From a virus: DNA of 64,000 nt. Below are positions 17,867 through 41,711 of this stretch, piece after piece; positions within the stretch are counted from its first letter, which is position 1; every line of letters begins with the position of its first letter. A program made the position numbers and the translations under genes. Under the pieces are notes generated by a model that saw nothing but the letters and a program-made list of their open reading frames with translations, ran no database searches and was not told the origin of the DNA. The DNA is taken from IMG/VR virus record IMGVR_UViG_3300021426_000003, positions 39,151 to 103,150 of that record; one strand, written 5' to 3'.

Positions 17867-17939
17867 AGCTCCCAGACGGACTTGAACCATCAACCTATTG
17901 ATTACAAATCAATTGCGCTACCAATTGCGCCATAAGAGC
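17867..17939 (-). tRNA. tRNA-Thr (anticodon UGU)
   Basis: The reverse complement folds as a cloverleaf: acceptor GCTCTTA/TGGGAGC, D arm GCGC-AATTGGTA-GCGC, anticodon arm ATTGA-TTTGTAA-TCAAT, T arm GATGG-TTCAAGT-CCGTC. Confidence 0.7.
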
Positions 17940-19925: not shown

Positions 19926-19980
19926 AATAGTAATCATTTTAAATCCCTCAATGAGGAATAATACACCTTTAGGTGTAGAG

Positions 19981-20056
19981 CGATTTAGGAGGGATTTGAA
20001 CCCTCGCTCCCCAGCGTGACAGGCTGGTGCTTTAAACCGAACTAAGCTACTAAACC
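19981..20056 (-). tRNA. tRNA-Asp (anticodon GUC)
   Basis: The reverse complement GGTTTAGTAGCTTAGTTCGGTTTAAAGCACCAGCCTGTCACGCTGGGGAGCGAGGGTTCAAATCCCTCCTAAATCG folds as a cloverleaf with anticodon loop CTGTCAC and discriminator G. Confidence 0.7.
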
Positions 20057-23531: not shown

Positions 23532-26213
23532 TTAAATATTATTTACTTCTTTGTTTTTGATATTTTTTGAGAAACATTCTAAAAACTGCTTTGAATTTAA
23601 TTCATATAAAGTCTTTAATAATAATGGTCTATTTTTATTTAAGTTTGTTTTTATTGGTCTACCTTTATGTTTTACTTTAGAAGATGTATTAAAAGCCCTA
23701 TTGATTAAATAAGACATTAATCCTAAATACTTTTTAGTAAAAGTTATTTGTTTTATATCTTCAATTAATTGGTCAAAATCAGAATTGAGTAATAAATAAT
23801 CTTCTTCATTTTCAGTGTCATCAATTTCATTATTTTTATTATAATTAAAAATCCTCAATGAATATTTATTTATTAGTTCTTCAACTTTTCTACTCTTAGT
23901 TTTACTAATATCTAATTCATAAGTATTTAAAAATTTATCTATAGAATAAGTAGAAGAATTAGTACTTATTCTTGGATTAATATTCATATTATACAAAGAA
24001 TTCATTGGACATTTTATTTCTGAATTATACATTGAATTTCTTCTTTCAATCTGTTTATCAGTTAATTCAGATAACTTAACACCATTACGTTTATCATTTT
24101 TCTTTTTAATTGCTTTCCAGAAAATAGGATACCCATTCGTATTAATATTCATATCACGTTGAATTCTGTCTATTTCTTCTGAAATATTTATATTATATGT
24201 ACGTTTACTATTGTCAATTGCAGCCTGAGCTATAACTGATAATATACATACATAATCTGTAAATTTTTTGTCTAAATAAGAATAAGAATATGATAATGCC
24301 AATTGCGCTAAATTTGAAGAACCACCTATATCCCCCTGACTAGCAGCCAATTTATTATCTATTTTAGCAAAATCTTCTAATGAATTTGTATAAATATTTT
24401 TTTCTTTAGGAATATTATTTACAATCGTGGGATAATTTTGAATACAATATTTAGCATGAACTACGATATCTGATTGATTTGTTGTATATATTGAATCGCT
24501 ATCCTGATCACTACCATTGTTTCTATCTTGAAAATCTGTACCAATCATATTAATAGCTATACAATTTTTTCCAATATTAAAATATTTTTCCAATCTCCAA
24601 TCATAATGATTATGTAAATATCCTAAATTATTACGACTATTAAAAGGATTTCTAAATTCTGCAAGATATTCATTATCTTCAAATCTTTCCGTATAACATT
24701 GTATACATCCGTCTTCGTGTTCAAATGTTGGGTCAGATTCTGGGTCTTCTCCAACAGTATATAATAACATCGCAAAAGGAGAACCGACTATTGTAAGATT
24801 ATCTCCATTATTAATTATTCTCCCCATTTTAGCATTGGCTATATAGCTTTGAATTATTCTATCTCGTCTATCTTTAAAATAAGAGCATTGTTCAAATTCA
24901 GAATCCTGTTTAATTAATGCAATCAATACTTCAAAATCATTTGAAAAATTTGCATTTCTTTTTAAATAGTCTAAAAAAACATTTATATTGTTTTTTAATT
25001 GATAAATATAATCCTTGGTACATTGAACCGCACCTTCGATAGTGTTTATATCTAAAGCATTCACCATCTGATAAGACTGATATTGAACATTGCCAAGCTT
25101 ACTTGGATGAGCAGTTTTAACAATTCCAAACCAATTATCGTTATCCTGTTTAACTCGCTTGCACCAATACTCATAAGTAATACCATTAAATTTTATCCAC
25201 TTAATAGCGTTATCTGTAGTTACCATTTTAATATCAGTAACTTTATGTTCATTACCCCACATGTCTTTAATCACTGCATTTTCATATTCATCTCCATAAT
25301 AATCTTTAAACCATTGTTGAAGATAACAATCAAAAGCAGCCGCTTTAAACATATGTTGTCTCAAAAGAATATAACCATTTCCCCATGTTGGAAATAAACT
25401 ATGGTCAATTAATGCTTGTCCATCAAATAAAACATTGCCCAATTTATAATTCTCTTTTTTAACAGCTTGACAATGACCTTTATCATCAAGTTCTATACTA
25501 ATTGCGCTTCCTAAAAAAGATGATTCAACATCTTTTAATATTAATATATCCTTTGGGTCAATCTTAACTTTCCCGACAATAGAAGAAGCAACCAATGAAG
25601 AATAAGCTCCGATTTCAACAATGGGAGCATTTTCTTTTGGGAGCTGAATTCCCATATATAAATAATCCCTTGCAATATCATAAAGTTCCTCACGAATAAA
25701 CATACATGAGCCAGTTTTGGCTTTACCAGTAGAGCGGAAGAGCATTTTATAATGTATCTTTTCTGTATCAGTTATTTTGCCTTTTTTACTATATACATTA
25801 TAAAAAATATCTACTCCCTGAGTATAATAAAGAATTCTAAGCTGGTCTTTTGTATATCTTACAAATTTATCTTTATTATCTTCGGCTTTAGATTTTAAAG
25901 AATTTAAAAAATCAATCTTTTGTTGTTTTTGCTCTTCAGATATTTTTTTATCTTTTTCATATGATTTAATTCGTTTATTTAAATGAGCAATTTCTTCTTC
26001 ATAAGTACGGCTACCATATTTAAAAGTAATACAAATTATATCTCTAGTTGATTCACCCTTATAAACATCCAATCCATGCGCTACCATATAATCTTTAAAA
26101 AGGCTGTTAATCAACATAGCTTCAGTAATATCATATCTATCACGCACTCCTATATTTTTTTCCATAATTGAGCCAGCTGCAAAATTATTAATGCGTAATC
26201 CAAACTCTGACAT
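23532..26213 (-). CDS. large hypothetical protein (893 aa)
   Basis: Uninterrupted ORF with a strong RBS; no Walker A or polymerase motifs recognised; last gene of the desulfurase/radical-SAM transcription unit. Confidence 0.55.
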   Translation of the reverse strand: MSEFGLRINNFAAGSIMEKNIGVRDRYDITEAMLINSLFKDYMVAHGLDVYKGESTRDIICITFKYGSRTYEEEIAHLNKRIKSYEKDKKISEEQKQQKIDFLNSLKSKAEDNKDKFVRYTKDQLRILYYTQGVDIFYNVYSKKGKITDTEKIHYKMLFRSTGKAKTGSCMFIREELYDIARDYLYMGIQLPKENAPIVEIGAYSSLVASSIVGKVKIDPKDILILKDVESSFLGSAISIELDDKGHCQAVKKENYKLGNVLFDGQALIDHSLFPTWGNGYILLRQHMFKAAAFDCYLQQWFKDYYGDEYENAVIKDMWGNEHKVTDIKMVTTDNAIKWIKFNGITYEYWCKRVKQDNDNWFGIVKTAHPSKLGNVQYQSYQMVNALDINTIEGAVQCTKDYIYQLKNNINVFLDYLKRNANFSNDFEVLIALIKQDSEFEQCSYFKDRRDRIIQSYIANAKMGRIINNGDNLTIVGSPFAMLLYTVGEDPESDPTFEHEDGCIQCYTERFEDNEYLAEFRNPFNSRNNLGYLHNHYDWRLEKYFNIGKNCIAINMIGTDFQDRNNGSDQDSDSIYTTNQSDIVVHAKYCIQNYPTIVNNIPKEKNIYTNSLEDFAKIDNKLAASQGDIGGSSNLAQLALSYSYSYLDKKFTDYVCILSVIAQAAIDNSKRTYNINISEEIDRIQRDMNINTNGYPIFWKAIKKKNDKRNGVKLSELTDKQIERRNSMYNSEIKCPMNSLYNMNINPRISTNSSTYSIDKFLNTYELDISKTKSRKVEELINKYSLRIFNYNKNNEIDDTENEEDYLLLNSDFDQLIEDIKQITFTKKYLGLMSYLINRAFNTSSKVKHKGRPIKTNLNKNRPLLLKTLYELNSKQFLECFSKNIKNKEVNNI

Positions 26214-34768: not shown

Positions 34769-35293
34769 TTACTCCTCTTCAGTGTATGCTTTTATTTCTG
34801 TAACTTCGCAATAACCATTATCTTCAAAATCTAAATCCATTACTAAACCAAAAGAATCATATTGGTCATTTTCATTAATAACACAATATACATTTGTTAC
34901 CATATATTTATTTTCTAAAGGTATATCATTTATAGTATTGATTTTTACAAATTTTATAATATATTCAAAATCATTTCTGTTAAAAAATTCATTTTGTTTG
35001 AATAATTTTATTAATTCATCATATGCAATTTTGAAGGTAGGATATTTTTTTGCTTCTTTAAGTGTTCCAACTTCATTAGGAGCAGAACATATTTTATTTC
35101 CGAAACAATCTATTTTACTTGTTGTATTATTACCATCATAAAAACCATCATCTCTCCATTTTTCATTATAATCAAGAATTATATATTTGTATTTTCCACC
35201 TTCTTGAGGAGGTTCATCAAGCCATTCTTCAATAAAACCAAATACATAAAAACTCTGCATGTTTTGTTTTTTTAAAAGTTTTGTTTCTGTCAT
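34769..35293 (-). CDS. hypothetical protein
   Basis: 174 aa; start MTETK duplicated; coupled to the nucleotidyltransferase gene. Confidence 0.45.
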   Translation of the reverse strand: MTETKLLKKQNMQSFYVFGFIEEWLDEPPQEGGKYKYIILDYNEKWRDDGFYDGNNTTSKIDCFGNKICSAPNEVGTLKEAKKYPTFKIAYDELIKLFKQNEFFNRNDFEYIIKFVKINTINDIPLENKYMVTNVYCVINENDQYDSFGLVMDLDFEDNGYCEVTEIKAYTEEE

Positions 35294-36324
35294 TAAACTA
35301 CTCCTTCCTGATATAATACAGTTAAATTGGCATCATATAAAAAATCATTAATTCGTTTATAATCAGGGTTATCTGGAAGAGGAGAGTGGTCTTTTAAATA
35401 ATTTAATTTATTTTCCATCTCATCAACAATATCATAAAACTCTTTAGTAGGTTGTTTATCATCATCCAAATACTTACCATTTCTAATATCCATTAGGAAA
35501 TCATGTTCTTTTTTTCTATATGTAATAATCTTACCGTCTTCAAGAATATCAAAGCACATAAGATATAATCTAATAAGATGCATCATATGTTTGCTTAACT
35601 TATCATGCTCAATGGCTTTTGAATTACGTCTTCCAATTTTAGAATAATCTTTAACAATATTCTGCATCTCTGACCACATAGATTTATAATCCCTAAGTGG
35701 ATAATGTTTTAAATTTATATCCATAAAAATTTCTGTATCATAATCTTCTTGGATAGCTTTATCAATATAAAGCTTAATAGAATCTTCTGGATAATTAAAA
35801 TATTTATCTGGATAAGAATATCTTGCATTTTCAATACTTGCTAAAATATGTTTTTCTCTTTGCTCCTGTTCTACTGTACGAACAGCTTTATTAGATAATC
35901 TTCGAAGTTGTGCAGTAGCATAACCACCGAATGAATGGGCAGCTCTTTTAGATAGAAACATATCTTTATTTTTAATAAGCTCTTGACCAATATAACCTGT
36001 ATATAAATACTGCCAAGGTTCAAGACCTAAAATTTCAATTGTATTAGGATTACAATTGGAAAGAAGATTAACAATCTTTTCAAGAGAATAAACAGTTGTA
36101 TCAGTAGCTTCATTAACAACCTGTTCAAAACCTTTTCTTGTAAGAATATCTTCTGAATTATGAGTAGCCACACCTCTGATATCCAAATCACTGTTTTCAG
36201 TATTAGTGCCATAAGCATAGCTGCCACCAAGTCCTAATAGAATAATATTGTTGCCCAATGGTTTTTCTTTTAAAAAACTGTATTCAGAAGAAGCAATTTT
36301 ATTTTTAATTTCTTCAATTGTCAT
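35293..36324 (-). CDS. Pol-beta-superfamily nucleotidyltransferase
   Basis: GLGGSYAYGTNTENSDLDIRGV matches the hG[GS]-x9-13-Dh[DE]h NTase signature; 343 aa with a helical C-terminal domain. Confidence 0.6.
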   Translation of the reverse strand: MTIEEIKNKIASSEYSFLKEKPLGNNIILLGLGGSYAYGTNTENSDLDIRGVATHNSEDILTRKGFEQVVNEATDTTVYSLEKIVNLLSNCNPNTIEILGLEPWQYLYTGYIGQELIKNKDMFLSKRAAHSFGGYATAQLRRLSNKAVRTVEQEQREKHILASIENARYSYPDKYFNYPEDSIKLYIDKAIQEDYDTEIFMDINLKHYPLRDYKSMWSEMQNIVKDYSKIGRRNSKAIEHDKLSKHMMHLIRLYLMCFDILEDGKIITYRKKEHDFLMDIRNGKYLDDDKQPTKEFYDIVDEMENKLNYLKDHSPLPDNPDYKRINDFLYDANLTVLYQEGVV

Positions 36325-36657: not shown

Positions 36658-36878
36658 CTTGTAACCTTTCTTATAACTATTTGATTATCTATATCAATAT
36701 TGGCTTCACATGTAGTATCTAAACAATCTTTTCTACAATGAGAGTATAATGGTAATCTATCTTCTTTAGGAAGAATAATATTTAAAATTATATCCCTTTC
36801 ATTTGGACATGAGTTTAAATAATACATCTTATCTTTAACTTGTTTTGCAATTTTTCTTCTTAATTTCTTTTTATCCAA
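36654..36878 (-). CDS. hypothetical small Cys-containing protein
   Basis: 74-aa ORF, coupled. Confidence 0.35.
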   Translation of the reverse strand: MDKKKLRRKIAKQVKDKMYYLNSCPNERDIILNIILPKEDRLPLYSHCRKDCLDTTCEANIDIDNQIVIRKVTR

Positions 36879-37332
36879 TTGTTGTAAACCTCCAAAGGTA
36901 TCTATAAATTTTAGAAATTATATTATTTAATTCTTCCTTTGTATTTTTATATATAAACAATTTATCTATTTCCTCTTTATACCAAGGATGAAGAGAAGAA
37001 TAATTTTCTTCTGGAATCATACCTATAATTGGTTTATTTAATGTATATGCATACATCATTTCCTGAGCAGTACCAATAGAAGAGAATGAATTAAAATTAA
37101 TTATTATTATATCTGAGTGTTTAATCCAATAGAGGTCATATTTCATTGCTTCTTTTTCGTATAATTGGTCTGAGTTATTTGAAGGTGTATATAAATATGT
37201 TGGGTCTATAAAAATAAAACCATTACCTTCGTGTACATTTTCCAATTTAAATCCTGTTCTCCAATAAGAAGCTTCTTCTTCTGTTAAACCTGTCATTCCT
37301 CCACTAAGAAAGACTTTTAATTTATCTGACAT
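36871..37332 (-). CDS. nucleoside 2-deoxyribosyltransferase-like protein
   Basis: VFLSGG ... SIGTAQEMMYAYTLNKPIIG matches the SGT-x-E-x-G-x-A-x-x-KP signature of the NDT/DNPH1 family. Confidence 0.55.
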   Translation of the reverse strand: MSDKLKVFLSGGMTGLTEEEASYWRTGFKLENVHEGNGFIFIDPTYLYTPSNNSDQLYEKEAMKYDLYWIKHSDIIIINFNSFSSIGTAQEMMYAYTLNKPIIGMIPEENYSSLHPWYKEEIDKLFIYKNTKEELNNIISKIYRYLWRFTTIG

Positions 37333-38158: not shown

Positions 38159-38227
38159 TTATAAACATGTAAATAATATACATGATTTAATTATATGGGT
38201 TTAATCGGAAAAGTCAAGAGGATAGGA

Positions 38228-38312
38228 AAGAATATAGTAAAGAATATAGTAAGAAGAATATAAAATATTTAATGTGGATAAAGTGGATAGAGTGGATAAG
38301 TTTGTGGATAAG
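38228..38312. promoter_or_regulatory. origin-like element: tandem 12-bp repeats plus four DnaA-box-like 9-mers
   Basis: AAGAATATAGTAA twice (38228-38252); TGTGGATAA (38274-38282 and 38304-38312, the exact reverse complement of TTATCCACA) plus GTGGATAG and GTGGATAAG, all in one orientation about 10 bp apart. Confidence 0.5.
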
Positions 38313-38697
38313 TTAGAGAAATTTAAAAGAATTTTAAAGAAATTGACGAAAAGATAGGCGAGAATTGGGAGATGGGGGATTGAGTGATTAAATATGTAAA
38401 AATAATTAGTGTTGTGTGGTTTAAGGGGCGACCCGGTCGCTAAAAAAATCCTTTATTTATCAGGTTTTTCCTACCCCGGTACGGATCATTTTTACTCCTC
38501 AATTTTGACTTCCAAAAATCCGTATTTTTGGCACTTTTCGAGGATCGCTGCGCTGGAAAAAACGAACAGATGTACGAATTTGCCTCAAAATCCCAATTTT
38601 GCCACTATGCGACCAGCTCGTTCGAGTGGCACGGACGGGCACACACACAGACATGCCACACAAGCCACGGCGCTAAAGCGCAGAGAGGAGAAAAATC

Positions 38698-39270
38698 ATG
38701 GCAAACAAGAACACAGGCAACACACAGGTACAGGCAATCGCAATCGCACAGGCAATGGCAATCACGCAAGCTATGCTTGCGTTGGATGCGTATCGGACAT
38801 CGCTCCTCGCGTATGCAGATGCGGACGCACATGAGGATCGTGAGCGCATGAGCATGTACGCATCACTCGGCAAGGGCGAGCGCAAGGCAGTGTGGAACGC
38901 ACTTGTGAAAGCGGGCTTTCCCGTAGGGAAAGCTGTGCTTCCCAAGACCGAAGCAGCAGCGCCTGCGCCCAAGCAGTCACAGACTCCTACGGAACGTGCT
39001 GGTGAGGTGTGCATGTGGGTACGTGATGGCGCATACGTGAGCACTGCCACCGCAGGTGGCAAGTTCGTTGGTCGCAGTGGAATCCGCAAGATTCTCAACG
39101 CTCGCATCCGTAAGGCGGGTGGCACATACGACAAGGCGCACAAGGCGTACAAGTTCCCGAACGAGCAGAACGCCATTGACTTCGTCAATGCTACATCCGC
39201 TACGGTCACGGACGAGCAGTTCCGTGAGTACATGGGCACACTGGAGCGCAAGCACAATGAGAAGGCGTAA
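38698..39270 (+). CDS. hypothetical protein encoded by a GC-rich foreign cassette (190 aa, Ala/Lys-rich)
   Basis: AGAGGAGAAAAATCATG RBS; about 60% GC versus about 30% in the flanks; followed by a strong terminator; upstream TTGACT with a TCCAAAAAT/ATTTTTGGA palindrome. Confidence 0.55.
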   Translation: MANKNTGNTQVQAIAIAQAMAITQAMLALDAYRTSLLAYADADAHEDRERMSMYASLGKGERKAVWNALVKAGFPVGKAVLPKTEAAAPAPKQSQTPTERAGEVCMWVRDGAYVSTATAGGKFVGRSGIRKILNARIRKAGGTYDKAHKAYKFPNEQNAIDFVNATSATVTDEQFREYMGTLERKHNEKA

Positions 39271-39284
39271 GCCTTCTCGAGGTT

Positions 39285-39322
39285 CACAGTCGGGCTTCGG
39301 CTCGGCTGTGATCCTTTTTTTT
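39285..39322 (+). terminator. intrinsic terminator with a UUCG tetraloop
   Basis: 11-bp stem CACAGTCGGGC/GCTCGGCTGTG (two G-U pairs) with a TTCG loop, then ATCC and T8. Confidence 0.7.
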
Positions 39323-40340
39323 GTGCCTTTGAGCCCCTTGTTGATCATATGCTTATCGAAATTTTGTATAAGCATGTGATGAATAAGGGCTTCAAAAAAA
39401 CGCCCTATATGCATATACGAATCAGATAATATCGCATATGTCTGGTGTTGCAAGTCACCAATCATTTCTACTTGCGTTTTTCAAAATCGGGTCGGTCAGT
39501 ACTCGTTAACCACTGACAAAGAATAAAACCGTTATAATCGAAGGCTTTTATGTCAGCTACCTACACCGTAACGGTTACATATTGCAAAATGTATTGTGTT
39601 ATAACAATGCTCAATCAAAAAAAGAGCCAAGGACACAAATATGTCTCCAATATTTGTGATTGCAAAAACATGCACAATTCAACTTTAGAAATCTTAAGTG
39701 CCTTAAAGGTAGGTGATAGATTGCTAAGTGTATGAATATCCTGCTCAAAGAAAGGAGGTGAGAGCGATATAACACAATCCATAACATTGCAAGTTGACGA
39801 TTGGTCGGAATCAATCAATCCCTTTAGGATTTGTCCTTGTGAATGTTATTCTTGCCGTATGTACTTCCGTTAGAGAGGCATGGGTCAAAAGACTGGCGAT
39901 TAGTCGAAGGTGACAAGGGAGTAGGAGCTCCACTCGGTTATAGTCCTTCCGCAAGATAGTCAGAATGGCTTGGCACAACTTACCAAGGCTGACTGATAAA
40001 GGGGCGGTACTACAAAAGTGACCGAGAATAAAAAATAACAGGCGACTGGACAAACCTGTTATCAAACTGGCATCTGTTGAGACTAAAACTAAAAATTAGA
40101 CTCAACTGCGTATACTTAGTAACTCGCAAGGGTAAGTACCTTGGGGAGCAAAGACGCACAGTAAGGAATAAGTCCACTAAACAATTGATTTATTCGGCAG
40201 ATGAATAAAGATATATGTAATAAAAACATATATATAATAAAACACCTAATGAATAATAAAATTGCTCTTATGGCTTGTGTGTCTTTCTTGTCAAGGGGAT
40301 AGAGTAGCGGTTGCAATAAGTACATACAAGTACATTGTTG

Positions 40341-40365
40341 ACTTGTCCAATATACTTGTCCAATG
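40341..40365. promoter_or_regulatory. tandem 11-bp direct repeats (operator-like) next to a TTGACT -35-like hexamer
   Basis: ACTTGTCCAAT at 40341-40351 and again at 40355-40365; AAGTACAT is also duplicated just upstream. Confidence 0.4.
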
Positions 40366-40717
40366 TATGTATTGCGTCAACTCAGTATATCGTGAGGATG
40401 TCAGCGGTAGTGTTAAGTGGTGCATTAATATTAATTAATTATTCCACTTGCGAAGGTCTATTGACTGACACGAGGTCGCAGGAAGTACCTGCATAAATCC
40501 TAAATCACACTTATTCAGGTTGTGATTGTAGAACGAGCAATTGATTAACAGTCAATTGTCTATTGTGGCTTAACTACCCACATTAACGAGTAGGTGCAAC
40601 TCCTACCACAACCTCTTAACTATTAATAATGATTGCAATTCTCGTTATAAATCGAGGTGCTAACATCCAACTTATGACGTAGTCCCAATCATCAACAACC
40701 ATGAAAGGAGTAACACA

Positions 40718-41149
40718 ATGAACAAAAAAGACAGAGCACTCGTAAACAGGGCAGAGCATGAAGATATGGATTATATCACACCTATTAGGTCTTTAGACGT
40801 CCTTATTTTTAGGAATTTATCTAAAAAGGCTTTTGGTATCCAATTCTGCAATCGCAGAGCGACCAAAGATGCCTTAGTATTTGACCTTACTGGAAGCCCT
40901 GCGGATATCCGTAAGGGTATTAAGTATGTTGAATATTTAGGTATTACACCTGTGTATGATAACCGCCCTATTATGAGAGAGGGCAGGACATACAACCTGT
41001 TTGTTGACGAAGGTGAATGGGTGGTGACACGAGTTGATATTGATGAAGAAACATTGACAGAATCGTATACATGCGTACATGAAATGGCTCTTCTCGAAAA
41101 TTACGACGATGACTTCATCTGTGAAGAAGCAATATGTGAAGTACTCTGA
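40718..41149 (+). CDS. hypothetical protein (first gene of the plus-strand early block)
   Basis: AAAGGAG RBS; 143 aa; GC about 40%. Confidence 0.5.
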   Translation: MNKKDRALVNRAEHEDMDYITPIRSLDVLIFRNLSKKAFGIQFCNRRATKDALVFDLTGSPADIRKGIKYVEYLGITPVYDNRPIMREGRTYNLFVDEGEWVVTRVDIDEETLTESYTCVHEMALLENYDDDFICEEAICEVL

Positions 41150-41353: not shown

Positions 41354-41711
41354 TTATAAAATACAACGAAAGGAAATAAATGCCTATGGAAAATGACTGT
41401 AACTCGTTGTCACATGCAAACTGTTCTAGTCTCACATCCCCAAGCATCATTCTTTAATGGGTAGACAAAGCGTAGGAACATTTATTATTCCTGCGCTTCA
41501 ATGTACCTATTAATAGCTCAAATAGGGAAATAAATCCCAGAAAGGAGAGATATGAATTATAGTCCTATTCCCAATCCCGAAACTAATTTGGACTGGTTCA
41601 ACATCAAGGGAACTCAAGTTGGTTAATAATATATATAAATATATTAATCGACTCAATAAGGCAAATAAATTTGACCCTCAAAAAAGGAAACAAATCTCAG
41701 AAAGGAGCAAT

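Follow-up and report, generated by a model that had tools for sequence, protein, structure and literature searches.

The DNA analysed here, hereafter the window, is a stretch of 64,000 nucleotides (nt) within a scaffold of 108 kb (ERZ28612969 scaffold_226) that derives from a sheep rumen metagenome. Its overall GC content is approximately 30%, and the tailed phage that it represents is classed as SPbeta-like on account of its large terminase, which shares 43% identity with YonF of Bacillus phage SPbeta. Genes lie on the - strand up to approximately 38.2 kb and on the + strand from there on. To the right of this switch, a small gene encoding a protein of 190 amino acids (aa) is followed by the subject of this analysis, a 1395-nt intergenic gap (39323-40717), which in turn precedes a rightward gene cluster headed by a gene for a 143-aa protein. 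The gap is considered here as a candidate large noncoding RNA (ncRNA), and its features are collected in Table 1. Measured between database gene calls, it spans 1448 nt, more than any other gap on the source contig (the runner-up has 843 nt).

An earlier note on this DNA, made from the letters alone, had described approximately 1.4 kb free of open reading frames (ORFs) and of intermediate composition, and both points hold. All six frames are closed, with 19-35 stop codons per frame and all three kinds in each, and the measured 38.1% GC lies between the 57-61% of the upstream ORF (the note's GC-rich cassette) and the ~30% of the remaining window. Because all three stops are frequent in every frame, reassignment of a stop codon rescues no ORF, and an alternative genetic code was ruled out for the gap. 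No ORF is shared by all types of relatives described below, a search that included small conserved ORFs and type I toxins, and insertions or deletions (indels) of 1, 2, 23, 30, and 48 nt, frame-breaking ones included, are tolerated across them. A small conserved ORF or type I toxin was ruled out on these two grounds. A protein-coding pseudogene was likewise rejected, there being no shared ORF cluster, no frameshifted ORF, and a tolerance of indels.

The covariance-model search that the earlier note had proposed assigned the gap to no known family. On both strands of the window and of five homologous loci, none of the 4227 models of Rfam 15 matched at gathering score, and at E <= 10 only models of eukaryotic small nucleolar RNAs and microRNAs appeared (E 0.5-10), chance matches of which none is common to the homologues. 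In particular, the models of ROOL, GOLLD, OLE, raiA, and other large RNAs gave no match on either strand, those of group I (RF00028) and group II introns gave none at gathering score or at E <= 10, and riboswitch, T-box, ribozyme, and leader models gave none beyond chance. The layout of an intron within a host gene is also absent: a stop codon and a terminator close the upstream gene, and the downstream gene starts from a ribosome-binding site (RBS) and ATG of its own. Within the window, no motif of the gap recurs elsewhere as a dispersed operator-like repeat (SPBRE-like), and nhmmer profiles found no second copy of the gap.

These results bear on a suggestion of the same note, that the gap is a degenerate group I or group II intron, ribozyme, or pseudogene that decayed after arriving with a foreign GC-rich cassette. 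The intermediate composition would agree with such an origin, as would two strings resembling the S element of group I introns. The strings do exist; they are, however, arms of the gap's own local or long-range helices, CTCGGTTAT pairing with GTGACCGAG and AGTCAG with CTGACT, and they are accompanied by no group I match at E <= 10. Moreover, no ribozyme model matches at that threshold, all frames are closed with none conserved, there is no frameshifted ORF, relatives carry a gap of the same length, conservation of the region exceeds that of the genes beside it, and the cassette is a resident family gene (see below). A decaying remnant is thus regarded as very improbable.

Relatives were gathered as contigs with homologues of the upstream protein (79-88% identity) or the downstream protein (49-90%), together with one motif scan of Joint Genome Institute (JGI) metagenomes. 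They comprise approximately 10 distinct sequences of three types (A, B, and C), all from sheep or cattle rumen assemblies, and the element belongs to this small group of SPbeta-like phages. The Logan contigs were checked and come from metagenome runs, not RNA assemblies. Protein and motif scans of IMG/VR yielded no relative; their single match is unrelated GC-rich coding sequence and is thus a chance match. By blastn and megablast, GenBank phages contain no nucleotide match to the phage, and motif scans of GTDB genomes found no copy of the gap, so that no prophage copy and no host were identified.

Every relative has the same layout, in which a homologous small gene and a terminator are followed by an ORF-free gap of 1430-1570 nt and then by rightward genes. 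Two parts of the gap are universal, the 3ʹ module (domain 4, 40290-40700) and a short block at its centre (40061-40157); of the 5ʹ modules there are at least three interchangeable types. Positions 39785-40060 (domain 2) and 39462-39570 (the first 100 nt of the conserved part) are common to types A and B; 39570-39785 is found only in type A, and what replaces it in types B and C is of similar length but unrelated in sequence. In every comparison with the window, domain 4 is 88-93% identical, whereas the gene just downstream of the gap reaches 65-73% at the nucleotide level (51-67% at the amino acid level) and the upstream gene 60-83%. In type C, domain 4 is retained before a different first gene. 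Because domain 4 outconserves the flanking genes and is kept even where the first gene differs, the gap is evidently under purifying selection on the nucleotide sequence itself. Indels fall in loops or correspond to the gain or loss of whole hairpins: an insertion in type C is a complete hairpin (GGCUUUUAAAGCC), and what type B has lost through a deletion of 30 nt is one hairpin exactly. The hairpin GTTGAGACT/AGACTCAAC is optional, being cleanly deleted in type B.

Conservation of base pairing was assessed in alignments of 12 sequences for domain 4, with structures predicted by RNAalifold, and of 11 sequences for domain 2. The consensus of domain 4 contains 98 pairs with 99.0% of cells paired, and 14 of these pairs have changed on both sides, compared with 7.4 +/- 1.6 in shuffled alignments (none of 500 reaches 14) and 0-3 when the 3ʹ partners are slid. 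For domain 2, the consensus contains 71 pairs (97.8% of cells paired), of which 16 have changed on both sides, compared with 8.1 +/- 1.8 after shuffling and 1-6 after sliding. Of the two outcomes that the earlier note had set against each other, covariation and decay, the related phages thus show the former, above the controls.

Several covarying helices are long-range, spanning approximately 70-160 nt. Helix 39933-39941/40018-40026, which is 100% paired with four covarying pairs, exists in four compensated versions (CUCGG/CCGAG, CUUGG/CCAAG, CCCAG/CUGGG, and CUCAG/CUGAG). Helix 40517-40524/40607-40614, which encloses three hairpins, has exchanged U-A for C-G in four sequences of two types, and helix 40381-40386/40468-40474 contains a pair that is A-U, G-C, or an A.C intermediate. 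Additionally, the 15-bp hairpin at 40313-40375 has three compensated pairs in type C, and a 15-bp helix (39589-39603/39768-39782) covaries within type A alone. Two pairings, AAUCACA/UGUGAUU and GGUUGUG/CACAACC, overlap by 4 nt and are mutually exclusive; covariation backs only the latter. The hairpins listed in the earlier note are all present (39351-39373, 39386-39406, 40035-40062, 40077-40107, and 39902-39916), and AACAGG/CCTGTT and GACT/AGTC show compensatory changes in relatives. As a separate observation, UUUGUCC at 39830-39836 is complementary to GGACAAA at 40048-40054, which falls within the loop of hairpin 40035-40062; neither varies, apart from one G.U in one relative (L014), and the two may form a pseudoknot.

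The gap therefore displays what is generally expected of a structured ncRNA: no coding capacity, nucleotide conservation above that of neighbouring coding sequence, and compensated base pairs that include long-range helices. A large structured ncRNA was among the candidates of the earlier note, and the conserved GNRA loops described below add to the case for it. Absence of conservation, absence of covariation, and a pseudogene, which the note had named as contrary findings, were each looked for and none was encountered.

The note had also called for folding energies to be compared with shuffled sequence. Both strands fold better than dinucleotide shuffles (z = -2.7 to -6.2 for domain 4 and approximately -0.8 to -2.9 for domain 2), so folding energies are uninformative on strand. 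Consensus folds obtained by an identical procedure do differ, with 14 vs 10 covarying pairs on the + and - strands for domain 4, 16 vs 5 for domain 2, and 25 vs 12 for the whole region. The + strand thus has approximately 1.4- to 3-fold as many covarying pairs, it also has more pairs, and its consensus energies are lower (-76.7 vs -60.8, -51.8 vs -40.1, and -94.3 vs -59.8). On the + strand, two conserved tetraloops vary only within GNRA, at 40126-40129 (GCAA/GUAA) and 40450-40453 (GCGA/GCAA/GUAA), and a third GNRA loop (40042-40045) competes with helix h9; among the conserved tetraloop hairpins of the - strand, none has a GNRA or UNCG loop. The gene before the gap and its terminator lie on the + strand, as do the genes that follow. 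Because of these consensus folds, covariation counts, GNRA-only loops, and flanking features, an RNA read from the + strand is favoured but unproven. A strand call from counts of G.U and A.C pairs was discarded as circular, since the prediction for each strand collects its own wobble pairs.

With a probability of roughly one half, the gap would correspond to a previously undescribed, modular, highly structured + strand RNA of approximately 1.2 kb that acts as a long leader of the rightward operon. Such an RNA would extend roughly from 39480 to 40700, possibly beginning near 39350. A long 5ʹ leader is suggested because domain 4 reaches the RBS with no terminator whatever the first gene is, coming within approximately 20 nt of the RBS of whichever gene leads the rightward cluster. 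At the other end, the gap always starts just after a terminator and a conserved near-palindrome (core ATCGAAATTTTG, 39355-39366), which is a candidate operator or transcript 5ʹ end. The earlier note had also suggested a regulatory or origin hub: a place immediately before the rightward genes suits a leader with a regulatory role, but both the cluster of DnaA boxes and the divergent promoter are found outside the gap (38190-38315). The leader would act in cis on expression of the downstream genes, the early status of the 143-aa gene being an assumption, and candidate routes include elongation past terminators, RNA stability or processing, and ribosome loading. Specificity may be set by the 5ʹ half, which differs between types, and by the co-varying small protein encoded upstream. 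Any mechanism must account for a Shine-Dalgarno (SD)-like loop that lacks a start codon, the mutually exclusive helix pair, and the type-specific 5ʹ modules.

Several points weigh against this reading. Transcription of the gap, like the strand, the RNA ends, and the cis-regulatory mechanism, is inferred from sequence. Because there are only approximately 10 distinct sequences in three clades (11-12 aligned), the covariation rests on few independent events, and the structures scored were predicted from the same alignments that were used for scoring. At 1.2-1.4 kb, the region would be unusually long for a leader, and parts of it may be separate RNAs. The analogous intergenic gap of SPbeta holds the packaging start, a DNA-level function. 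The + strand has no sigma-A-type promoter that all types conserve; a TATAAT at 39533 with a weak -35 is missing in type C. Single-sequence energies show no preference for the + strand, domain 4 of the window giving z = -2.7 on the + strand and -4.8 on the - strand. Finally, the - strand carries near 40443 an extended -10-like sequence, TGGAATAAT, that does not vary among the 12 sequences and keeps an antisense reading alive.

In that antisense reading, a functional RNA would be transcribed leftward from near TGGAATAAT and oppose the rightward operon. It would gain from the better folding of domain 4 of the window on the - strand, on which, moreover, the SD-like motif reads CACCUCCUUUC, identical to the usual 3ʹ tail of 16S rRNA. 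The - strand consensus folds, however, have fewer pairs, higher energies, and fewer covarying pairs, they contain no GNRA or UNCG loops, and no conserved terminator is found on this strand. Furthermore, the conservation of the putative promoter could also be explained by the predicted helix in which it lies, which is itself invariant. A functional RNA from the - strand is considered improbable.

The main rival to a + strand leader, ahead of a DNA element and then of a - strand RNA, is one or more free-standing, stable, trans-acting large ncRNAs in the manner of GOLLD, ROOL, or the lncRNAs of phage K, possibly processed from the leader. Instead of controlling genes in cis, this RNA would have the host as its target, with the exposed 13-nt SD-like loop as one possible means, or build a larger particle. 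The size, multi-helix architecture, long-range helices, and GNRA loops fit such an RNA, as do the exchangeable modules, the presence of the SD-like loop in all types, and the retention of domain 4 in type C despite a different downstream gene. Large phage RNAs of unknown role are, moreover, already known (PMC12286853, PMC9241854). Against it, there is no terminator or other 3ʹ-end signal before the first gene, both tRNA genes lie approximately 20 kb away, no large-RNA model of Rfam matches, and expression is again deduced; a free-standing RNA is held to be unlikely. Tentatively at best, 39480-40700 could be one ornate RNA of ~1.2 kb, larger than GOLLD, that acts in its own right and founds a new class of giant phage RNA. 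If so, it could dock 30S subunits or 16S tails through the 13-nt loop, or it could serve with the co-varying upstream protein as an RNA-based determinant of immunity or specificity, the 5ʹ modules defining the types. The loop in question, AAAGAAAGGAGGUGA, is complementary over approximately 13 nt to the usual 16S rRNA 3ʹ tail.

The remaining alternative is an element acting as DNA: a headful packaging (pac) start as in the yonP-yonR gap of SPbeta, a replication origin or single-strand initiation region, or a linker for module exchange, with hairpins that form in single-stranded DNA or serve as protein-binding palindromes. In SPbeta phages, the packaging start, at which the genome is opened, lies in the intergenic gap where the divergent clusters meet (bioRxiv 10.1101/2021.11.22.469490). 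The kinship of the terminases and the comparable position of the SPbeta opening point would favour such a role, as would the nearly equal folding of both strands, the location at a mosaic boundary of exchangeable modules, and the variable-length AT-rich tracts that interrupt the region. Sites in duplex DNA, however, predict neither compensation across ~70-160 nt nor GNRA-only loops nor a + strand asymmetry. The gap also shows no sequence or profile similarity to the yonP-yonR gap, nhmmer profiles finding nothing in SPbeta at 60-95 kb, and the purine-rich repeats that do resemble that gap lie at 38200-38400, upstream of the small gene and, like the DnaA boxes (38270-38315), outside the gap. The Goe14 record was tried as a marker of the SPbeta opening point and is uninformative, as it begins at the integrase. 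A purely DNA-level element is doubtful, although a DNA-level role for part of the region is possible.

A replication origin is more readily placed outside the gap. Only three perfect DnaA boxes exist in the whole 64 kb, and the cluster near the strand switch is kept in all relatives with 3-6 copies. Because its conserved boxes sit at both the GC-skew and the strand switch, the cluster is likely a replication origin or a DnaA-controlled promoter region. A near-consensus promoter (TTGACT-16-TATAAT) stands in front of the leftward cluster.

The upstream 190-aa ORF, which the earlier note had taken for a foreign GC-rich cassette, is instead a member of a conserved resident family. It is protein-coding, since its changes show codon periodicity, and homologues with 31-36% identity and a lower GC content (41-49%) occupy the same position in types B and C. 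In total, the family comprises 31 clusters of proteins of 160-190 aa (41-57% GC), and its three subtypes run parallel to the types of the noncoding region; members include L024 3945-4436, L023 456-941, and L031 4902-5444(-). All share a basic C-terminal domain of ~80 aa (..AR.RK.GG.YDK..K.Y.F..). The upstream protein has no Pfam or PHROG match and no Foldseek match in the PDB with E < 2, a comparison made with a poor AlphaFold model (a confidence score, pLDDT, of 55). Because divergent, lower-GC homologues hold the same position in types B and C, the gene did not bring the gap in from outside, and it is best described as a resident, fast-evolving partner of the gap.

Bacterial and phage ncRNAs longer than 500 nt are few, and GOLLD, ROOL, and OLE are each structurally remarkable. 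To our knowledge, the functions of these three remain open. Like GOLLD and ROOL, the element is large (hundreds of nt or more), multi-domain, phage-borne, and of unknown function, and it forms a GC-richer noncoding island in an AT-rich genome. ROOL, like the present element, was first seen in rumen metagenomes (PMC5737381, PMC12286853). Unlike them, the element matches neither Rfam model at E <= 10, lies away from tRNA genes, abuts the RBS of an operon with no terminator of its own, and consists of ~1.2 kb of exchangeable modules.

Its position at the head of a phage operon and downstream of a terminator, together with its conserved structure, calls to mind lambda nut, HK022 put, and the P4 CI/seqA-seqB-seqC leader RNA, and the type-specific segments and a long-range complementarity that changes in step recall P4-like RNA immunity determinants. 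Those elements measure approximately 60-400 nt, and the present one is 3-10 times larger. The upstream protein has no recognisable fold, and no antiterminator protein was identified. With yonP-yonR, the gap shares a large noncoding extent and its location at the switch between leftward late and rightward clusters; it differs in that its covariation points to RNA and in that the SPbeta-like repeats are separated from it by a gene. A long structured RNA near an origin-like DnaA cluster is also reminiscent of ColE1 RNA II and of R-loop primers at phage origins, but here the DnaA boxes lie upstream with a gene and terminator in between, and no RNase H or primer site is defined.

As nothing corresponding to it appears in Rfam 15, GenBank phages, or IMG/VR, the element is, as far as its sequence indicates, a new family among the large structured phage RNAs and leaders, with a narrow distribution and a putative function. 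Its value as a candidate lies in ~1.2 kb of sequence under stronger selection than the adjacent genes, with covariation-backed helices, at the head of a rightward operon in SPbeta-like phages and beside a DnaA-box cluster and a co-varying small protein. The picture of the locus is also corrected, with a resident, fast-evolving family gene in place of a foreign cassette and a likely origin elsewhere than in the gap. Metatranscriptomes of the same sheep are public (SRR873450-SRR873465; PMC4158751), and the RNA reading is therefore directly testable.

Table 1. Features in and around the gap, in window coordinates
Feature	Position	Strand	Description
Leftward promoter TTGACT-16-TATAAT	38217-38190	-	Hexamers and spacing kept in all relatives; spacer differs
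DnaA-box cluster	38270-38315	.	TGTGGATAA twice perfect, plus two near-perfect copies
Upstream gene (190 aa)	38698-39270	+	57% GC; family subtypes precede the gap in every relative
Intrinsic terminator of upstream gene	39284-39325	+	12-bp GC-rich stem and T-run; 5ʹ limit of gap; equivalent stem and T-run after the homologous gene in all three types
Palindrome/hairpin GCTTATCGAAATTTTGTATAAGC	39351-39373	.	Near-palindromic core in all types; TATCGAAATTTTGATA in type B
Hairpin AGGGC-(A-rich loop)-GCCCT	39386-39406	+	All types, with altered stems (AAGGCG/CGCCTT, AGGGCG/CGCCCT)
Block of types A and B	39462-39570	+	Small hairpin with covarying stem (GTCAGT/ACTGAC in type A, CCAGTA/TACTGG in type B); conserved CCGT(T/G)ATAATCGAAGG, a TATAAT-like box with weak -35
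Domain 1 (type A only)	39570-39785	+	Helix 39589-39603/39768-39782, hairpin CACAAATAT/ATATTTGTG, further helices with compensatory changes
Hairpin YGCUC/GAGCG	39742-39766	+	15-nt loop, a long SD-like string with no start codon following; SD-like motif GAAAGGAG(G)UGAG recurs in all three types
Domain 2	39785-40185	+	Three-hairpin unit 39787-39842; hairpins 39918-39931, 39966-39991, 40035-40062; closing helix 39849-39855/40161-40167
Universal block	40061-40157	+	TCAAACTG...GCGTATACTTAGTAACTCGCAAGGGTAAGTA; hairpin with GNRA tetraloop
Two AT-rich hairpins	40189-40233	+	TTTATTC/GAATAAA and ATATATGT/ACATATAT, the second covarying (TGCATGT/ACATGCA, ATACATGT/ACATGTAT); followed by a poorly conserved AT-rich linker to 40290
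Domain 4	40290-40700	+	Hairpin 40313-40337/40361-40375; helices 40381-40386/40468-40474 and 40517-40524/40607-40614; GCAGG/CCTGC 40478-40492; GNRA loop 40450-40453; hairpin 40644-40678
RBS AAAGGAG and ATG of first rightward gene (143 aa)	40704-40720	+	No terminator between domain 4 and gene

At 40327-40366, a tandem duplication of 23 nt (ACTTGTCCAATRT repeated) occurs in the window and in one relative (L024), inside the loop of a conserved hairpin. Exactly at this duplication, two JGI contigs of the same phage break off and overlap, which suggests heterogeneity in the population.

The phage has strong RBSs of the AGGAG type and rho-independent terminators. Together with the conserved TTGACT-16-TATAAT promoter and the conserved cluster of perfect DnaA boxes, these point to a bacterium, probably a Firmicute, as host. 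One member of the upstream-protein family (P0029) comes from a contig of 76 kb that carries the NCBI label of a Methanosphaera metagenome-assembled genome. An archaeal host suggested by this member was set aside, the promoter, DnaA boxes, and intrinsic terminators pointing to a bacterial one; the label is probably a binning artefact in which a low-GC phage contig was binned with a low-GC archaeon.

Just left of the strand switch, the - strand carries genes for an RlaP nucleotidyltransferase (35293-36324) and a nucleoside 2-deoxyribosyltransferase-like protein (36871-37332). Further into the leftward cluster, an 893-aa protein (23532-26213, - strand) matches phrog_8308, a family of unknown function; given the kinship with SPbeta, it is possibly a YonO-like RNA polymerase. 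The same cluster includes two phage tRNA genes, Thr-TGT and Asp-GTC, at 17867-17939 and 19980-20056 (- strand). To the right of the gap, another intergenic stretch (41354-41711) is conserved above its neighbours, with 80-98% identity to relatives, and contains two mini-ORFs that start at 41381 and 41553 and have good RBSs.

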